Below are positions 57,239 through 62,821 of a stretch of DNA of 64,000 bases, piece after piece. The notes beneath the pieces are model-generated. The model was not told the origin of the DNA. It ran no database searches and saw nothing but the letters and a program-made list of their open reading frames with translations. The stretch is from Candidatus Magasanikbacteria bacterium GW2011_GWC2_37_14 (GTDB lineage: Bacteria; Patescibacteriota; Patescibacteriia; Magasanikbacterales; UBA922), in assembly GCA_000990355.1 (NCBI GenBank), contig LBSX01000007.1:441-64440 (forward strand), given 5' to 3'. The number at the start of each line of letters is the position of its first letter. Within the stretch, counting starts at the first letter, position 1. A program made the position numbers and the translations under genes.

Positions 57239-58450
57239 ATGTTTTTCAAACTTACTCACCAAGACAAAAACTCCCGCGCTCGTACGGGTGTGATTACCAC
57301 TGCCCATGGAAAAATTGAAACCCCAATTTTTATGCCTGTTGGCACGCAAGCCACGGTAAAAACTTTGGATAGTACTGATTTACAAAATTTAAAAGCTCAA
57401 ATTATTTTGGGTAATACTTATCATTTACATTTACGCCCTGGCGAAAAACAAATTGCCAAATTAGGTGGTCTTCATAAATTTATGAATTGGGATAAACCAA
57501 TTCTTACCGACTCTGGTGGCTTTCAAGTTTTTTCTTTGGGTCTGCAAAAAGAAAATAAAAACGGTCAAAAGTTTGTAAAAATTGATGACGAGGGAGTTAC
57601 TTTTCATTCACACATTGATGGCTCTATTCATCGCTTTACTCCAGAAATTGCCATAAAAATCCAACACCAAATTGGTGCAGATATTATAATGGCTTTTGAT
57701 GAATGCACTCCCGATGGCGCCGAAGAAAAATATATTAAAGAAGCCATGGATAGAACGCATAGATGGGCGGAGAGATCCTTGGCTTATCATAAAAACATTA
57801 AAACATTAAAACATAAAAACACTTACAAACTTACAAACTTACAAACTTACAAACAATACTTGTTCGGCATTATCCAAGGCTCCAACAACAAAGAACTTCG
57901 TCAAGAATCTGCCAAATTTATTTCTAATCTAGACTTTGATGGTATTGCGGTTGGTGGTGAGTCAGTGGGCTACAACATGGAAGCAACAAAAAATATTTTG
58001 GATTGGGTTTATCCATATTTGCCAGTAAATAAGCCTCATTATGCCATGGGTTTGGGTCAAAACCCCAGTGACTTATTCGAAGTTGTGGAGCGTGGAATTG
58101 ATATGTTTGATTGTGTGGCCCCTACTCGCCAAGCCCGTCATGGTTTGGTTTATATATTTGATAAAAAAAATAAACACAAATTAGATATAAAAAAAGCTAA
58201 ATACAAAAATGATAAAAAACCTCTTGATCCCAATTGCACTTGCTCTGTTTGTAATCCTCCCCTTTATAAGGGGAGGAAACAGGAGGGGTACACCCGCGCC
58301 TACATTCACCACTTATTTAATACTCAAGAAATTACTGGTATGCGACTAGCCACAATCCACAATTTGCATTTCTTTTTAAATTTAACCGCCCAAATGTGCA
58401 AAGCTATTAAACAAGATAAATTTTTAGCCCTTAAGAAAAAATGGTGTTAA
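57239..58450 (+). CDS. tgt: queuine tRNA-ribosyltransferase (tRNA-guanine transglycosylase)
   Basis: [23 protein letters not shown] and a Zn site CTCSVC...YTRAYIHHL. It contains two lineage-specific inserts: octamer repeats at 57792-57855 and a palindrome at 58253-58290. Confidence 0.9.
57792..57855 (+). repeat. eight consecutive octanucleotide units (AAAACATT x2, AAAACATA, AAAACACT, TACAAACT x3, TACAAACA) inside tgt
   Basis: Read directly. They encode [22 protein letters not shown] within the coding frame. Confidence 0.7.
58253..58290. repeat. palindromic element, family CCTCCCCTTATAAGGGGAGG (copy inside the tgt CDS)
   Basis: aatcctcccctttataaggggaggaaacaggagggg. Other copies: 6132-6168, 15668-15688, 53993-54049, 54151-54229, and a variant at 55328-55352. 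Confidence 0.7.
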
Positions 58451-58451
58451 C

Positions 58452-58477
58452 TGTCATCCTGAACTTGTTTCAGGATC
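58452..58477. repeat. palindromic element, family GTCATCCTGAAC..TTCAGGATC (tgt-uppP spacer)
   Basis: ctgtcatcctgaacttgtttcaggatcc. Related copies: 61088-61114; 62832-62856 and 30958-30982 (gtcat(c/t)c(c/t)cgcgcaggcggg(g/a)atc); 56196-56254 and 61854-61892 are longer variants inside CDSs. Confidence 0.65.
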
Positions 58478-58487
58478 CCCAAAAAAT

Positions 58488-59288
58488 ATGACCATCCTAC
58501 ACTCAATCATTCTTGGCATTGTGGAAGGCATCACCGAATTTTTACCTATTTCTTCAACTGGGCATTTAATCCTCACTGCCAAACTTTTGCATTTACCCGA
58601 AACCAATTTTAATAAAAGCTTTGAAATCATTATTCAACTCGGAGCAATCTTAGCTGTTTTAGTAATTTACTGGAAAAAACTTTTTTTAAATAAAGAAACA
58701 TTCAAAAAAGTTGCTTTGGCTTTTATTCCCACAGCGATTATTGGTTTAACACTCTACAAAATTATCAAAAGTTATTTATTAGGTAGTACCACCGTCGTTC
58801 TCTGGTCACTATTAATTGGTGGTATTATTATCATTATTTTTGAAAAATTTTATTTACCCTGTACCGCTCTGGTACAAGGTCATGAAAATTCCGAAACAAA
58901 TCTTGCTTTGGAAAAAATTACTTACAAACAAGCATTGCTAATTGGACTATTCCAATCAATTGCTATTATTCCCGGCGTTTCGCGTTCTGCAGCTACAATT
59001 ATTGGTGGCTTATCACTTGGCCTAAACCGAAAAACAATTGTAGAATTTTCTTTTTTATTAGCCATCCCAACCATGGCTGCCGCCACTGGATTAGACTTAA
59101 TCAAAAATGCTTCTAGTTTTTCTAGCAGCGAATTTGGTATTTTGAGTATTGGTTTTGTTACTGCTTTCTTGGTCGCCATTCTCGCCGTTAACTGGTTTTT
59201 AAAATTTATTACCAAACATACTTTTATTACTTTTGGCATTTACCGGATTGCCATTGCAATTTTATTTTTTATTTTGTTTATTAAATAA
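58488..59288 (+). CDS. uppP: undecaprenyl-diphosphatase
   Basis: ILGIVEGITEFLPISSTGHLIL and PGVSRSAATIIGG motifs with 7-8 TM. Confidence 0.9.
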   Translation: MTILHSIILGIVEGITEFLPISSTGHLILTAKLLHLPETNFNKSFEIIIQLGAILAVLVIYWKKLFLNKETFKKVALAFIPTAIIGLTLYKIIKSYLLGSTTVVLWSLLIGGIIIIIFEKFYLPCTALVQGHENSETNLALEKITYKQALLIGLFQSIAIIPGVSRSAATIIGGLSLGLNRKTIVEFSFLLAIPTMAAATGLDLIKNASSFSSSEFGILSIGFVTAFLVAILAVNWFLKFITKHTFITFGIYRIAIAILFFILFIK

Positions 59289-61041: not shown

Positions 61042-61201
61042 TGTCGTCACTCACGTAGAGACGCATTGCAATGCGTCTCTACAATAGTTGTCATCCTGAA
61101 CTGGTTTCAGGATCTTTCATAAATTTAAGCATTTTAGTAAATCTGACTAACGGAAAGATACTGAAATAAATTCAGCATGACACACAAAACAAAAACCGGG
61201 T

Positions 61202-61492
61202 TTATGACCCGGTTTTTTTAAATATTGATTCTAATTTCGCTTTTGCTTGATCTGGAGTAGCTGTTACTTGTGCTTCTTTTTTCTTTTGAAATTCTCTTAA
61301 ATCATCTGCAACACTAACACTTGTTCTTAATTTTCCTTCTGTACCAACAACCGGTCGTGTTCTTTCTGCACCAGCTCTTCTCTTTACCACACCAGGTGCA
61401 ACTTGTTCTCCTAACACAGATCTTACTGGCACACCTCTTGTTGCTTCAACAGGTGGCATATGTTCACCTGGTCTACGTGGCATCCAAACCAT
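61202..61492 (-). CDS. hypothetical 96-aa basic protein
   Basis: ORF with moderately elevated G+C. No motif recognised. Weakly supported. Confidence 0.3.
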   Translation of the reverse strand: MVWMPRRPGEHMPPVEATRGVPVRSVLGEQVAPGVVKRRAGAERTRPVVGTEGKLRTSVSVADDLREFQKKKEAQVTATPDQAKAKLESIFKKTGS

Positions 61493-61591
61493 ATATTTTA
61501 AATTAATTGCCTGCCTGCCGATGAGGTAGGGCCTAAATTAGCCAATATTTATTTAAATACCTATATATTATAGCACAAAAATCGCCTTTTG

Positions 61592-62821
61592 TCAATAGAT
61601 AAACATCGCATCACCAAAACTAAAAAACCGATATTTTTCTTTTACTGCCTGCCTGTAACACTCCAACATAAACTCTTTACCACTGCCAGGAGCACTCTTG
61701 TCCGCTGTAGCTTCAGCGAAGGCGGAGACCAACATTAGTAAAGTTGACTTAGGTAAATGAAAATTTGTAATCATGGCATCCACTATTTTAAATTCAAATC
61801 CTGGTTTAATAAAAATATTTATATCACCATGATAGGGCCTAAGTGTCATTGCGAGCCCTGCTCGAGCAGGGCGTGACAATCCCCCAGTTTTATCTTTAAC
61901 CATTGGGATTGCTTCGTCGCCTATGTCGGCTCCTCGCAATGACAAACTCGCAATCCCTTCCAACGTCCTCACTGTTGTCGTACCAACCGCCACCACTCGC
62001 CGACCTTCGGCTTTGGCACGATTAATTTTTTCAGCATTTTCTTCACTAAGTTCAATCCATTCACTATGCATGGTATGGTCTTCCACTTTTTCTGATTTTA
62101 CTGGCAAAAAAGTTCCCAATCCCACATGCAAAGTTACTTCGGCAAATTCCACACCTTTATTTTTAAGTTTTTCAATTAAAGAATCAGTAAAATGAAAACC
62201 CGCAGTTGGTGCTGCCACTGAACCTTCGGGTTTTGCATAAACTGTTTGGTATGTTTCTAATTCATGTGGCTCATCTTTTACATAAGGTGGCACAGGAATG
62301 TGACCATATTTATTGGCTTTAGCTCGTACAATATCGGCGTTATCGGGAAATTGCACCAAAATTGTTCCATCATTTTCTTTAACCAAGGCATCACAATAAA
62401 AATCAGGAGTTTGCCCTGAGCTTGTCGAAGGGGCAAACACCACTCGCATCCCCTCTCGTAAATGTCGCCCTGGCTTAGCCAATACTTTCCACACTCCTTG
62501 ATTTTCCATTTCACGAATTAAAAAAATTTCTATTTCTTTTTTGTGTTCCAATAATTCTTGATTATTTTCTGCTTCCACTAATTTACCAAATAACCGAGCT
62601 TTAAAAACTTTGGAATTATTCCAAACCAACAAATCACCGGGTTTTAAATAATCTATAATATCATAAAAATGCTTGCCCTGAGCGGAATGAAATGAAGCCG
62701 AAGGGTTTTCTTTAATTTTTTTTCTATCAACAACAAACAAACGCGAACTATCGCGTGGCGCAAGTGGATACTGAGCAATTAATTCTAATGGGAGGTTGTA
62801 GTCAAAATCAGTTGTTAGCAT
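61592..62821 (-). CDS. queA: S-adenosylmethionine:tRNA ribosyltransferase-isomerase with two in-frame palindromic insertions
   Basis: MLTTDFDYNLPLELIAQYPL, VAVGTTTVRTLE and FMLECYRQAV. Inserts read APSTSSGQTP (at 62409-62437) and ...TGGLSRPARAGLAMTL... (at 61854-61892). Confidence 0.9.
   Translation of the reverse strand: MLTTDFDYNLPLELIAQYPLAPRDSSRLFVVDRKKIKENPSASFHSAQGKHFYDIIDYLKPGDLLVWNNSKVFKARLFGKLVEAENNQELLEHKKEIEIFLIREMENQGVWKVLAKPGRHLREGMRVVFAPSTSSGQTPDFYCDALVKENDGTILVQFPDNADIVRAKANKYGHIPVPPYVKDEPHELETYQTVYAKPEGSVAAPTAGFHFTDSLIEKLKNKGVEFAEVTLHVGLGTFLPVKSEKVEDHTMHSEWIELSEENAEKINRAKAEGRRVVAVGTTTVRTLEGIASLSLRGADIGDEAIPMVKDKTGGLSRPARAGLAMTLRPYHGDINIFIKPGFEFKIVDAMITNFHLPKSTLLMLVSAFAEATADKSAPGSGKEFMLECYRQAVKEKYRFFSFGDAMFIY

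Follow-up and report, generated by a model that had tools for sequence, protein, structure and literature searches.

The stretch of DNA analyzed here (the window; 64 kb, 38% GC) comes from Candidatus Magasanikbacteria GW2011_GWC2_37_14, a groundwater bacterium of the CPR with a tiny genome. In four conserved genes of this window, namely, tgt, queA, the gene for a UvrD-type helicase and that for a C39-like peptidase, we confirmed that short, GC-rich hairpin repeats sit in frame within the coding sequence (Table 1). There is one insert in tgt, four sites with about five units in queA, seven extra segments in the helicase and one in the peptidase. The repeats belong to at least five families, with single units of ~20-40 nt and dimers and nested forms of up to ~100 nt; copies are found both between and within genes, and the intragenic ones are concentrated at 53-63 kb. 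The four sequence features described in an earlier note on this DNA are all present, with small coordinate offsets. By contrast, the notion that the same element recurs throughout had to be abandoned: tgt harbors family F1, queA harbors F2, a TGTCATTGCGAG dimer and a TCCGCC unit, and the C39-like gene harbors a TGTCATTCCC unit with a nested GCCTGCC hairpin. Nor can the repeats be called genome-wide, as they were, from 64 kb in which the intragenic copies cluster, the window being the scope of the in-genome census.

Table 1. Host genes, intragenic repeat copies and intergenic repeat copies in the window
Feature	Position	Strand	Evidence and comparison
Intergenic F1 palindrome pair CCTCCCCTATAAGGGGAGG + CCCCTCGTAGGGGGAGG, downstream of clpP	6133..6170		F1 pattern
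Intergenic F1 copy CCTCCCCTTATAAAGGGGAGGAAACA, tail same as in tgt insert	15658..15692		F1 pattern
Intergenic TGTC ATTCCCGC GCAG GCGGGAAT CTAA	30958..30984	+	tag match
UvrD/PcrA-type helicase gene	53272..55620	-	Pfam UvrD-helicase + UvrD_C
Helicase: F2 core CCTGAGCTTGCCGAAGGG (PSASSGQ)	53384..53401	-	pattern match; absent from L001
Helicase: GCCTGCC-type hairpin (LPDMSVGKSWQAG)	53441..53482	-	protein alignment
Helicase: F5 palindrome GTAGAGACGCAAAATTTTGCGTCTCTAC (VETQNFASLQ)	53757..53784	-	6 aa extra vs L001; intergenic twin 61055-61082
Helicase: F1-type outer stem, F2-like unit nested in loop (DPTPPSPVRPELTAKATRGGKSAGGK)	53992..54060	-	z -2.3
Helicase: composite of two F1 palindromes (SLPLQGGGEEGVSDETNPTPPSPHRGG)	54148..54233	-	pattern matches 54152 and 54209; absent from L001
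Helicase: insert TCTGCCAAAGACGGATCCGCTTTTGGCGGAGAGGGCAGA (SAKDGSAFGGEGR), net gain 30 nt	54712..54750	-	absent from L003, 92% identical protein
C39-like peptidase gene (Peptidase_C39_2)	55617..56480	-	Pfam PF13529, E=1e-12
C39-like: TGTC-tagged unit TGTCATTCCCT...AGGGAATCCC, nested GCCTGCC..GGCAGG hairpin	56195..56254	-	read from sequence; tag match
tgt (queuine/preQ1 tRNA-ribosyltransferase), 403 aa	57239..58450	+	Z. mobilis TGT structures, E=5e-98; protein 100% identical to that of GW2011_GWC2_37_14
tgt: F1 insert, 12-aa peptide	58253..58288	+	palindrome + GGAAACA tail; net gain 30 nt
Intergenic TGTC-tagged unit TGTC ATCCTGAA CTTGT TTCAGGAT CCCC	58452..58480	+	z -2.7
Intergenic cluster: F5 palindrome 61055-61082, TGTC ATCCTGAA unit 61089-61117, degenerate inverted copy 61155-61184	61055..61184		F5 z -6.7
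queA (S-adenosylmethionine:tRNA ribosyltransferase-isomerase)	61592..62821	-	1vky E=9e-91, also 1wdi, 1yy3
queA site 5: 30-nt insert CTCCGCCTTCGCTGAAGCTACAGCGGACAA, TCCGC/GCGGA hairpin, within SAFAEATADKSAPGS	61698..61727	-	clean 30-nt gap vs L005, L001
queA site 4: two inverted TGTCATTGCGAG...CAATCCC units	61844-61885 + 61905-61944	-	35-aa alignment break vs 1vky
queA site 3: 24-nt F2 cassette CCTTCGACAAGCTCAGGGCAAACT, PSTSSGQT	62408..62438	-	clean 24-nt gap vs L005, L001; z -2.9
queA site 1: F2 core, expanded loop CCCTTCGGCTTCATTTCATTCCGCTCAGGG, encodes ENPSASFHSAQG	62672..62709	-	pattern match 62677-62705; extra vs 1vky
TGTC ATCCTCGC GCAG GCGGGGAT CCA, between queA and YceG-family gene	62832..62858	+	z -2.9

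The F1 insert of tgt, with its 21-nt palindrome CCTCCCCTTTATAAGGGGAGG at 58256-58276, encodes, as noted earlier, a 12-aa peptide placed right after CTCSVC and right before YTRAYIHHL. However, it ends at 58288 rather than 58290, and the net insertion is 30 nt (10 aa) rather than 36 nt because the orthologs hold two residues (KN or QN) in this place. Compared with TGT in the PDB, the insert corresponds to a 10-aa gap between Q324 and K325; orthologs at 86% and 80% nucleotide identity do not contain it, and the gap is a clean 30 nt. The tgt copy and the intergenic copy at 15667 have 24 of 26 nt in common, including the GGAAACA tail, and the unit folds at -18.1 kcal/mol (z -2.0). Structural mapping by alignment to Z. 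mobilis TGT places the insert between the third Zn cysteine and the next helix, and in the AlphaFold model it is a coil predicted with less confidence (mean pLDDT of 88 and 76 for the 10-residue blocks across it, as opposed to ~94-95 on either side). Asp102, Asp280 and the Zn ligands C318, C320, C323 and H349 (Z. mobilis numbering) are all conserved. The loop after CxCxxC varies by lineage, with PPFTKGG three times in P0005, LPVRSGAKAG in P0025 and other versions elsewhere, and the homolog P0071 contains as an insert the GCCTGCC-type peptide LPDMPDGKSWQ. Tgt also contains AT-rich, low-complexity, non-palindromic extra segments at aa 93-103 and 194-202.

QueA is 409 aa long, compared with ~345 aa in solved structures. 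Both inserts previously recognized in this gene are there, but the site 1 copy and the 30-nt insert of site 5 had been missed. At site 3, the cassette together with the flanking TTTGCC forms a 30-nt palindrome GTTTGCCCTGAGCTTGTCGAAGGGGCAAAC at 62409-62438 that does encode APSTSSGQTP, although its end had been put at 62437. The gtcattgcgag..gtgacaat hairpin of site 4 had been placed at 61854-61892 instead of 61844-61885 and its inverted partner overlooked; the dimer, with a 19-nt spacer, encodes ~35 aa (SLRGADIGDEAIPMVKDKTGGLSRPARAGLAMTLRP) and folds at -51.3 kcal/mol (z -7.3). In the orthologs L005 and L001, site 4 holds another composite, CCTCCCCC..GGGGGAGG twice, and an insert of at least 5 aa is present there in 44 of the 120 homologs, with at least three families represented. 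In the site 1 loop, L005 and L271 have the compact F2 core read in a different frame (LRQAQGK), L001 has a version with a nested hairpin, and L127-L130 have no insert. Site 5 adds 11 aa compared with 1vky and folds weakly (z -0.3). The segment VEAENNQELLE of QueA is an AT-rich, low-complexity, non-palindromic addition. The AlphaFold model of QueA, at a mean pLDDT of 58.8, is too poor for judging surface exposure. Since model bacteria can do without tgt and queA, the earlier designation of their products as essential tRNA-modification enzymes was an overstatement.

The helicase consists of 782 aa, compared with 677 aa in the L001 ortholog (protein alignment), and its PSASSGQD peptide indeed derives from the F2 core CCTGAGCTTGCCGAAGGG. 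Next to the insert at 54712..54750, GAAAAAAAA is altered to GAGGGCAGA, completing an outer stem, and the composite at 54148..54233 folds at -51.7 kcal/mol (z -3.8). The hairpin previously noticed in the C39-like gene is likewise confirmed, its first position being 56195 rather than 56196; the unit lies in a poorly conserved linker behind the N-terminal hydrophobic segment and amounts to ~26 nt extra compared with L003, where the alignment is poor.

These sequences are far from random expectation. The F1 pattern CCTCCCCN{2,8}GGGGAGG has 5 matches and the F2 pattern CCTGAGCN{2,20}CGAAGGG has 3, versus 0.00 expected for each, and there are 19 perfect GC-rich 7-bp hairpins versus 1.55 in shuffles that preserve local composition. 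Greater fold stability than in shuffled sequences (z -2.0 to -7.3) is seen for the tgt unit, the intergenic units and the queA units at 62405-62442 and 61840-61950. No such gain (z about 0) is seen for the degenerate copies, namely, queA 62670-62712 and 61695-61738 and the C39-like copy (z -0.1). The inserts do not turn out to be ancestral loops unrelated to the intergenic palindromes because the same nucleotide families also occur between genes, namely, F1 at 6133 and 15667, F5 at 61055, and TGTC units at 30958, 58452, 61089 and 62832. That the extra segments reflect ordinary lineage-specific loop expansion, by slippage or drift and with no repeat origin, is therefore very improbable as a general account: it is contradicted for the GC-rich inserts, which share exact cores with intergenic copies and with the inserts of other genes and occur far above chance, but stands for the AT-rich, low-complexity, non-palindromic segments of Tgt and QueA.

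Ortholog alignments bear out that the inserts are repeat-derived, in frame and missing in the nearest orthologs. Four of them, accounting for gains of 30 nt in tgt, 24 and 30 nt in queA, and 30 nt in the helicase, are missing in the closest orthologs (82-92% identical), and because these orthologs do without the inserts and the alignments show clean gaps of 24 or 30 nt, the tgt, queA and helicase copies are recent additions. No target-site duplication was detected at the four clean junctions (tgt, two in queA, and the helicase); three junctions carry clustered changes in the flanks, which indicate delins events, with a few target bases replaced, as opposed to simple insertion. Domains of transposases, HUH enzymes or recombinases were not found in any called ORF of the 64-kb window. 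Given that the source is a metagenome-assembled genome, one might suspect assembly artefacts, but this suspicion is hardly credible: identical Tgt and QueA proteins are on record on 6 contigs from several sources, analogous inserts are present in independent assemblies from other samples, and every insert is in frame.

The host proteins look functional, as judged by the intact catalytic and Zn-binding residues of Tgt, by the cores of Tgt and QueA, which are invariant across homologs, and by the Tgt insert being a lower-confidence coil flanked by well-predicted elements. The frame is kept and stops are absent in all of the ~15 intragenic copies; judged solely from the frame and the intact genes, the inserts would be translated. 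Stable hairpins inside a coding sequence could, in principle, be bypassed by the ribosome, as in the mitochondrial 'byp' elements and T4 gene 60, or excised from the RNA. Such a sequence, however, needs neither to be in frame nor to be free of stops, and matched take-off and landing codons with an adjacent stop are absent here, so we deem this explanation very unlikely.

Evidence on the history of the inserts comes from queA site 3, where a 24-nt PSxSSGQ cassette occupies the identical codon junction in 8 of 120 homologs; the tree needs 7 independent changes, among which gain and precise loss are not told apart. L127, L129 and L272 have the cassette while close relatives of each have an empty site, filled and empty alleles coexist at 93% amino acid identity, and the junction and frame are identical in all filled alleles. 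The identity of the cassettes is 83-88%, versus 28-47% at fourfold synonymous sites in the same gene pairs. L272 and L270 share the cassette sub-variant GGGCAGGCTTCT, the former at site 3 and the latter at site 3b. Exact matches to the 18-nt F2 core occur in viral contigs and in genomes from many phyla; all 3 F2 cores of the window are intragenic, and intergenic F2 counterparts are seen only in other genomes. A single old insertion at each site that was later lost precisely many times, with the cassette kept because the hairpin itself is functional (for instance, through its structure in mRNA or DNA or as a binding site), would fit the shared junction and frame; constraint at the nucleotide level would likewise hold the cassette far above synonymous sites, and the CC or CCT short repeats that flank it could mediate precise deletion. 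Nevertheless, we regard this scenario as unlikely: with so few carriers, ancestral presence needs far more losses than the 7 parsimony changes, the identical sub-variant resides at a different site in another lineage, the core recurs in the helicase, Tgt homologs, unrelated phyla and viruses, and several degenerate copies show no folding advantage over shuffles.

The inserts might also have been co-opted, tuning enzyme activity or interactions (the Tgt dimer, or tRNA contacts near the Zn site), slowing ribosomes or stabilizing mRNA. The Tgt insert directly precedes the YxxxYxxHH helix, whose aligned counterpart in Z. mobilis TGT is the W326/Y330/H333 region, and hot-spot loops are reused across many lineages. 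Still, co-option appears quite improbable, considering that the nearest orthologs work without the inserts, that unrelated families encoding unrelated peptides are found at one site, and that the predicted structure is coil or of low confidence.

In-frame palindromic repeats within genes are not without precedent. The Rickettsia palindromic elements (RPEs; Ogata et al. 2000, 2002), as described in PMC10969869 and PMC3733652, similarly are palindromes that lie in frame in numerous conserved but unrelated genes of a bacterium with a small genome, with intact host genes, inserts thought to lie in permissive surface regions and no associated transposase known. However, PMC10969869 gives the classic RPE as ~150 bp, whereas here a single unit measures 24-40 nt and a length of ~100 nt is attained by dimers only; the host belongs to the CPR and not to the Alphaproteobacteria; one junction is reused repeatedly across lineages; and the likeness is one of described features. 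The superfamily of CGTC/TGTC-tagged REPs, as outlined by Di Nocera, De Gregorio and Rocco (2013, PMC3733652), includes RPE-4 and RPE-6, which are known inside genes, and Neisseria dRS3. The tagged units of the window combine an unpaired TGTC/CGTC tag with a stem of 8 bp that opens with A-T, a loop of 4-5 nt and a CC(A) tail, and putatively match this CGTC-type architecture (8-9-bp stem beginning A-T, 4-5-nt loop, short CC(A) tail); in both cases, units dimerise, copies occur inside genes and, as far as that account goes, a dedicated transposase has not been found. In the part of the account available, these REPs are reported mostly in Alphaproteobacteria and in 5 phyla, with the CPR not mentioned, and head-to-head dimers predominate, whereas the dimers here are tail to tail. 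The description fits only some of the families, an unpaired tag being absent from F1, F2, F5 and the TCCGCC unit. In the intragenic TGTC units, the loops are enlarged or nested. The GTAG-tagged REPs and REPINs, which are mobilized by RAYT (IS200/IS605-type HUH tyrosine transposases), also are short hairpins, often inverted dimers, that insert without target duplication, and a single-strand hairpin mechanism is plausible; unlike these, the repeats here show no unpaired GTAG tag (F5 opens with GTAG, but those bases are paired), and the 64-kb window has no RAYT gene. The GC clusters of yeast mitochondria and the 'byp' elements of Magnusiomyces are GC-rich mobile palindromes in AT-rich genomes, some within coding sequence, and resemble the present units in these respects; byp elements are skipped by the ribosome and do not require the frame, whereas the inserts here are all in frame and stop-free. 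Bacterial MITEs (Correia/NEMIS, ERIC, RUP, Nezha) usually leave target duplications, unlike the clean junctions described above. They too are small, non-autonomous repeats, sometimes with in-frame gene fusions (PMC10969869), but the units here are much shorter than MITEs, described as 70-300 bp with terminal inverted repeats (PMC3733652).

We consider it quite probable that the whole of these observations is explained by several families of GC-rich palindromic repeats of the REP/RPE kind that were recently inserted and are near-neutral. Under this scenario, insertions would arise everywhere and in every frame, selection would purge those that break proteins, and the survivors would occupy permissive loops and be translated as short, flexible, Pro/Ser/Gly/Gln-rich peptides; preferred junctions would receive insertions repeatedly. 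As the weakest step, the tagged units would most likely spread as single-stranded hairpins, via an activity supplied in trans from another part of the genome or via microhomology-guided copying. The inserts would be near-neutral selfish DNA rather than functional modules. The pattern of in-frame repeats in genes that is familiar from Rickettsia is thus repeated in a new lineage, Candidatus Magasanikbacteria.

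The Tgt and QueA proteins encoded in the window are 100% identical to those of Candidatus Magasanikbacteria bacterium GW2011_GWC2_37_14, which belongs to the Candidate Phyla Radiation (CPR). Comparison of the respective genes with their orthologs shows that short palindromic sequences have been inserted into them recently, cleanly, in frame and without duplication, that the sources are multicopy palindromic families, and that a few loops are heavily reused. The main idea of an earlier note on this DNA, namely, that multicopy palindromic families are inserted in frame, holds: the repeat sequences that it quoted are all present, within a few bases of where it placed them, and the ortholog alignments that it proposed as a check reveal clean gaps of 24 or 30 nt in the closest relatives, in place of the insert in tgt, two of those in queA and one in the helicase gene. 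The claim that 'the same elements' occur in tgt, queA and the C39 peptidase gene is too strong because the window contains several families, and although the two inserts named for queA are there, the extra segments of QueA relative to solved structures number five.

Palindromic repeat families and genes of the window
Feature	Sequence or structure	Location	Strand
F1	CCTCCCC-loop-GGGGAGG	tgt; helicase (three; a dimer and a copy enclosing a nested unit among them); intergenic 6133, 15667	
F2	CCTGAGC-TTGY-CGAAGG core	queA (two); helicase	
F5	GTAGAGACGCA..TGCGTCTCTAC	helicase; intergenic 61055	
TGTC-tagged	TGTC, stem starting AT, short loop, CC tail	intergenic 30958, 58452, 61089, 62832	
TGTC-tagged, enlarged forms		C39-like gene; inverted pair in queA, 61844-61944	
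TCCGC..GCGGA unit		helicase 54712-54750; queA 61698-61727	
GCCTGCC..GGCAGG hairpins		helicase; C39-like gene; intergenic	
UvrD-type helicase gene		53272-55620	-
C39-like peptidase gene		55617-56480	-
GC-rich ORF, function unassigned		56591-57109	-
tgt		57239-58450	+
uppP/bacA		58488-59288	+
rlmH-type SPOUT methylase gene		59294-59770	+
Vut_1/YhhQ-type transporter gene		60346-61041	+
queA		61592-62821	-
YceG-family gene		62866-63738	-

The window has a GC content of 37.9% and a negative GC skew over its entire length, and the majority of the genes are on the - strand. The genes tgt, queA and that of the Vut_1/YhhQ-type transporter are grouped within 57239-62821, and queC, queD, queE and queF were not seen in the window; this grouping is consistent with salvage of a queuosine precursor rather than de novo synthesis. 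The GC-rich ORF upstream of tgt (52% GC vs 38% in the genome) encodes 172 aa with a CxxxxC...CHxxH motif and has no Pfam match; the ORF in the same position in the related locus L003 is 60% identical, and in another, L001, an unrelated AT-rich gene is found there. GC-rich islands (46-60% GC) at 6200-9800, 13400-15800, 49000-49800 and 50800-51030 could represent DNA of foreign origin or surface-protein genes of unusual composition. Mobile-element genes were rejected as an explanation of the GC-rich islands at 6-10 kb, the products being thrombospondin type 3 (TSP_3) and Dicty_CTDC repeat proteins (6200-9800); the other islands contain no clear genes. Two proteins, of 3995 aa (31378-43365, -) and 723 aa (43378-45549, -), each with N-terminal T4SS_pilin and Ig-like (Big_5, TIG) domains, are giant pilin-like surface proteins.

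The two cores quoted in the earlier note occur five and three times in 64 kb, compared to none in 100 shuffles, and 19 strict GC-rich hairpins were observed against 1.55 expected. The majority of the units fold better than shuffled controls; degenerate copies fold no better. The listing of GC islands by itself was too noisy for defining elements, and for the GCCTGCC..GGCAGG hairpins, where a loose pattern with mismatches caught many unrelated matches, the clear copies alone were counted. The insert in tgt shares 24 of 26 nucleotides, the GGAAACA tail included, with the intergenic copy at 15667. The intergenic DNA that separates a small ORF from the Vut_1 transporter gene (61042-61217) consists almost entirely of repeats, namely, a palindrome of family F5, a unit of the form TGTC ATCCTGAA, its degenerate inverted copy, and then a hairpin that resembles a terminator and has a T run. 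A palindrome, CCTGTACCGCTCTGGTACAAGG, is also located within uppP (58858-58885, encoding LPCTALVQG), and the annotated start of the YceG-family gene (N-terminus at 63706-63725, MKIKTCLPIGK) overlaps a GCCTGCC-type hairpin, CTTGCCTATCGGCAGACAGG; the real start of this gene may lie further downstream. The Rfam scan of the window yielded three tRNAs and nothing else.

The orthologous loci compared are those of the closest relatives, namely, L003 and L005, which come from one JGI sample, and L001, from an NCBI metagenome-assembled genome (MAG). Alignment of tgt with orthologs of 86% and 80% DNA identity contains a single clean 30-nt gap, at the palindrome; queA, at 82% and 73% identity, has two clean gaps, one of 24 nt (62408-62431) and one of 30 nt (61698-61727); and the helicase gene shows a 30-nt gap relative to an ortholog that is 92% identical in protein. 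Every insert has a length divisible by three and no stop codon, in contrast to programmed bypass elements (byp, T4 gene 60), which have matched take-off and landing codons and a stop after take-off, and for which preservation of the frame is not required. Unlike MITEs, which combine terminal inverted repeats with direct target duplication, the inserts show no direct target-site duplication at the four clean filled/empty junctions (tgt, two in queA, and helicase). At three junctions, flank changes are clustered beside the gap. In the helicase gene, GAAAAAAAA became GAGGGCAGA, whereby the outer stem TCTGCC/GGCAGA is completed; in tgt, AAAAT changed to AGGGG and the preceding codon from ACT to GTT; and in queA, the unit inserted at 61698-61727 encodes Ser-Ala-Phe just 5' of the native Ser-Ala-Phe codons, which now read Ser-Ala-Pro. 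Judging from the alignments, these three events look like small replacements rather than plain insertions. The hairpin in the C39-like peptidase gene is likely to be a recent insertion as well, but a less clean one than the others because the linker in which it lies aligns poorly with relatives. In L005 and L001, the queA site after TLEGIA is occupied by an F1-type composite of the kind found in the helicase gene of the window.

Tgt aligns end to end with the Zymomonas mobilis TGT structures (E=5e-98), with D102, D280, C318, C320, C323 and H349 all kept. The insert corresponds to a 10-residue gap between structure positions 324 and 325, directly after the third zinc cysteine and ahead of the YxRAYIHHL helix. 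In the predicted model, which is good overall (mean pLDDT 82.8), the F1 insert adopts coil apart from two isolated bridges, and its block means are 88 and 76 vs ~94-95 in the flanking regions. The expectation in the earlier note that the inserts would map to surface loops agrees with this coil in Tgt, whereas the AlphaFold model of QueA (58.8) is too poor for such mapping and was not used, so that the QueA inserts were located only as gaps relative to three solved structures. The extra segments of QueA are ENPSASFHS, the AT-rich VEAENNQELLE, PSTSSGQT, 35 residues after TLEGIA, and EATADKSAPGS. AT-rich tandem repeats at 57790-57860 (units CATTAAAA and CTTACAAA), which add ~6 residues relative to the closest ortholog, are a second, non-palindromic route of Tgt growth; the AT-rich extra segments of the Tgt model, including aa 194-202 in this repeat region, have pLDDT < 50. 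An AT-rich repeat, caatgtgacaattcaacaatgtaacaatgta, is present also in rlmH (59565-59600, NNVTIQQCNNV), where the L005 ortholog is different.

Among the 120 closest homologs of Tgt, inserts of at least 5 residues are found after GLQKxKK (32/120), after HKKL (19/120), near FDK (11/120) and after the CxCxxC motif (4-5/120), and many of the insert peptides are repeat-typical (CHSREGGDPG, SSRGAERRGDP, HSTSSGQAP, LPDMPDGKSWQ, PPFTKGG). In QueA, 44 of 120 homologs contain inserts after TLEGIA, which belong to at least three families. The most informative recurrent insert is a 24-nt cassette with the consensus (G)YYTGC-CCTGAGCTTGYCGAAGG, which encodes PSxSSGQx and is located between Phe-Ala and Pro-Asp-Phe-Tyr-Cys in 8 of the 120 QueA homologs; the nearest relatives of these carriers, up to 93% identical, lack it, and its distribution at this site requires 7 changes by parsimony on a neighbor-joining tree. 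At the DNA level, the junction TTTGCC^CCAGA is common to four filled alleles (the window and three carriers) and their empty relatives. A second queA junction, TTTCCC^GAT, carries the cassette in 4-5 other homologs, and the sub-variant GGGCAGGCTTCT occupies the first site in one locus (L272) and the second site in another (L270). A target motif TTTSCC fits these two recurrent queA sites only, not the copies in the helicase gene or at 62672-62709 in queA. The identity of the cassette among carriers is 83-88% vs 28-47% at fourfold-degenerate sites of the same gene pairs. An old insert that evolved neutrally would have decayed; therefore, either the cassette was inserted repeatedly from conserved sources or selection acts on its nucleotide sequence, and of these we favor the first.

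The exact 18-mer CCTGAGCTTGYCGAAGGG is present in at least 120 species-representative genomes and in at least 120 viral contigs; the genomes listed include Bacteroidota, Cyanobacteria, Chloroflexota, Actinomycetota, Acidobacteriota, Planctomycetota, Nitrospirota, several classes of Pseudomonadota and several CPR groups. By our own estimate, which assumes uniform composition, ~35 matches are expected by chance in 596 Gb. Chance was rejected as the full explanation because at least 120 genomes are matched and, among the matches listed, 12 loci contain several copies and the upstream hexamer is GTTCGC in 29 of 138. Other heads, namely, GCCTGC, GCTTGC, TGTCAC and GTTTGC, recur upstream of the core in genomes and viruses and match cassette sub-variants of the queA inserts. 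In low-GC genomes elsewhere, the F2 core is mostly intergenic, being located deep in long ORFs in 4 of 37 cases, and no Rfam family covers it at the 16 other loci scanned. In a Coxiellaceae MAG (L059, 1336 and 7074), the core is nested in the loop of a TGTCATCCTGAGC...CGAAGGATC unit, and in an Eremiobacterota MAG (L083, 1486-2627), five copies are found within 1.2 kb, so nesting and clustering of the hairpins are general.

Rickettsia palindromic elements are the classical in-frame repeats in many genes (PMC10969869). The repeats described here are similarly palindromic and lie in frame in conserved, still intact protein genes but are set apart by length, with net insertions of 24-30 nt and composites of 69-101 nt compared to ~100-150 bp in the strict Rickettsia elements RPE-1 to RPE-10. 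Unlike REP/REPIN sequences with RAYT, the units have no unpaired GTAG/GTGG tag; only F5 starts with GTAG, which is paired there with CTAC. In REP/REPIN systems the repeats flank the RAYT gene; the called ORFs of the 64-kb window include no RAYT (HUH Y1 transposase) domain and no transposase, HUH or recombinase domain in general.

The CGTC-tagged REP superfamily was defined by Di Nocera and colleagues, whose description (PMC3733652) gives a tag that is often TGTC, a stem of 8-9 bp starting A-T, a loop of 4-5 nt and a tail near CCA; dimers are frequent, mostly head to head, intragenic copies exist, RPE-4 and RPE-6 are members, and no dedicated transposase is known. In line with this description, the window contains short (20-40 bp) multicopy stem-loops. 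Seven TGTCAT-headed units with confirmed hairpins are located at 30958, 56195, 58452, 61089, 61844, 61944(-) and 62832, and a degenerate eighth at 61155-61184. As in these REPs, TGTC stays unpaired when 58448-58482 and 62828-62860 are folded, and the stems and loops correspond as well, TGTC ATCCTGAA CTTGT TTCAGGAT CCCC having a 5-nt loop and TGTC ATTCCCGC GCAG GCGGGAAT a 4-nt one; a relative (L128) carries the canonical CGTC ATTCCCGC GTAG GCGGGAAT. The tagged units that lie within genes (queA and the C39-like gene) have the same AT start but enlarged or nested loops, and the tails of the tagged units (CCCC, CTTT, CTAA, CCAG) are CCA-like only in some. Both tagged dimers (61844-61944 and 61089-61184) have their tags outward and tails facing, an arrangement called rare in PMC3733652. 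Unlike CGTC-type REPs as described there, F1, F2, F5 and the TCCGCC unit have no unpaired tag. A limited literature collection contained nothing on such elements in CPR/Patescibacteria or on the element sequences or peptides.

Selection probably acts as a filter, such that in-frame, stop-free copies survive in permissive loops and are translated. The units might spread as single-stranded hairpins, via a trans-acting activity encoded elsewhere or microhomology-guided copying, as hinted at by their tag-stem-tail architecture, the absence of duplications, the replacements in the flanks and the one-sided strand distribution (4 of 4 singleton tagged units and 3 of 3 F2 cores on the + strand, a small sample). 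We consider it rather unlikely that the cassette and its relatives comprise a pan-bacterial (and viral) mobile hairpin with a sequence-guided, duplication-free mechanism that inserts it again and again at the same codon junctions. In this reading, the complementarity between the target flank in the window and the end of the cassette itself would indicate copy-in templated by the hairpin or by microhomology rather than classical transposition; if true, CPR genomes, with many close filled and empty alleles, could make the long-unexplained mobility of CGTC-type REPs tractable.

The inserts are real and add CPR bacteria, as a new instance, to the hosts of intragenic repeats of the REP/RPE type, with added interest in the density of the inserts, the reuse of identical junctions and one core identical across phyla. 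In-frame palindromic repeats in conserved genes, which had been described in Rickettsia and in a few bacteria rich in REPs, are now seen to be common in the CPR too. The repeat-derived share amounts to about a tenth of some housekeeping proteins (QueA, 409 vs ~345 aa; helicase, 782 vs 677), and the inserts inflate CPR protein lengths, alignments and structure predictions. The inserts represent natural experiments showing which loops accept 8-35 extra residues, one of these loops being within the zinc-site span of Tgt. Because many filled/empty pairs are available at one junction and the cassette is conserved far beyond the neutral level, comparative and population metagenomics can be used to test how tag-type REPs move and choose their targets.
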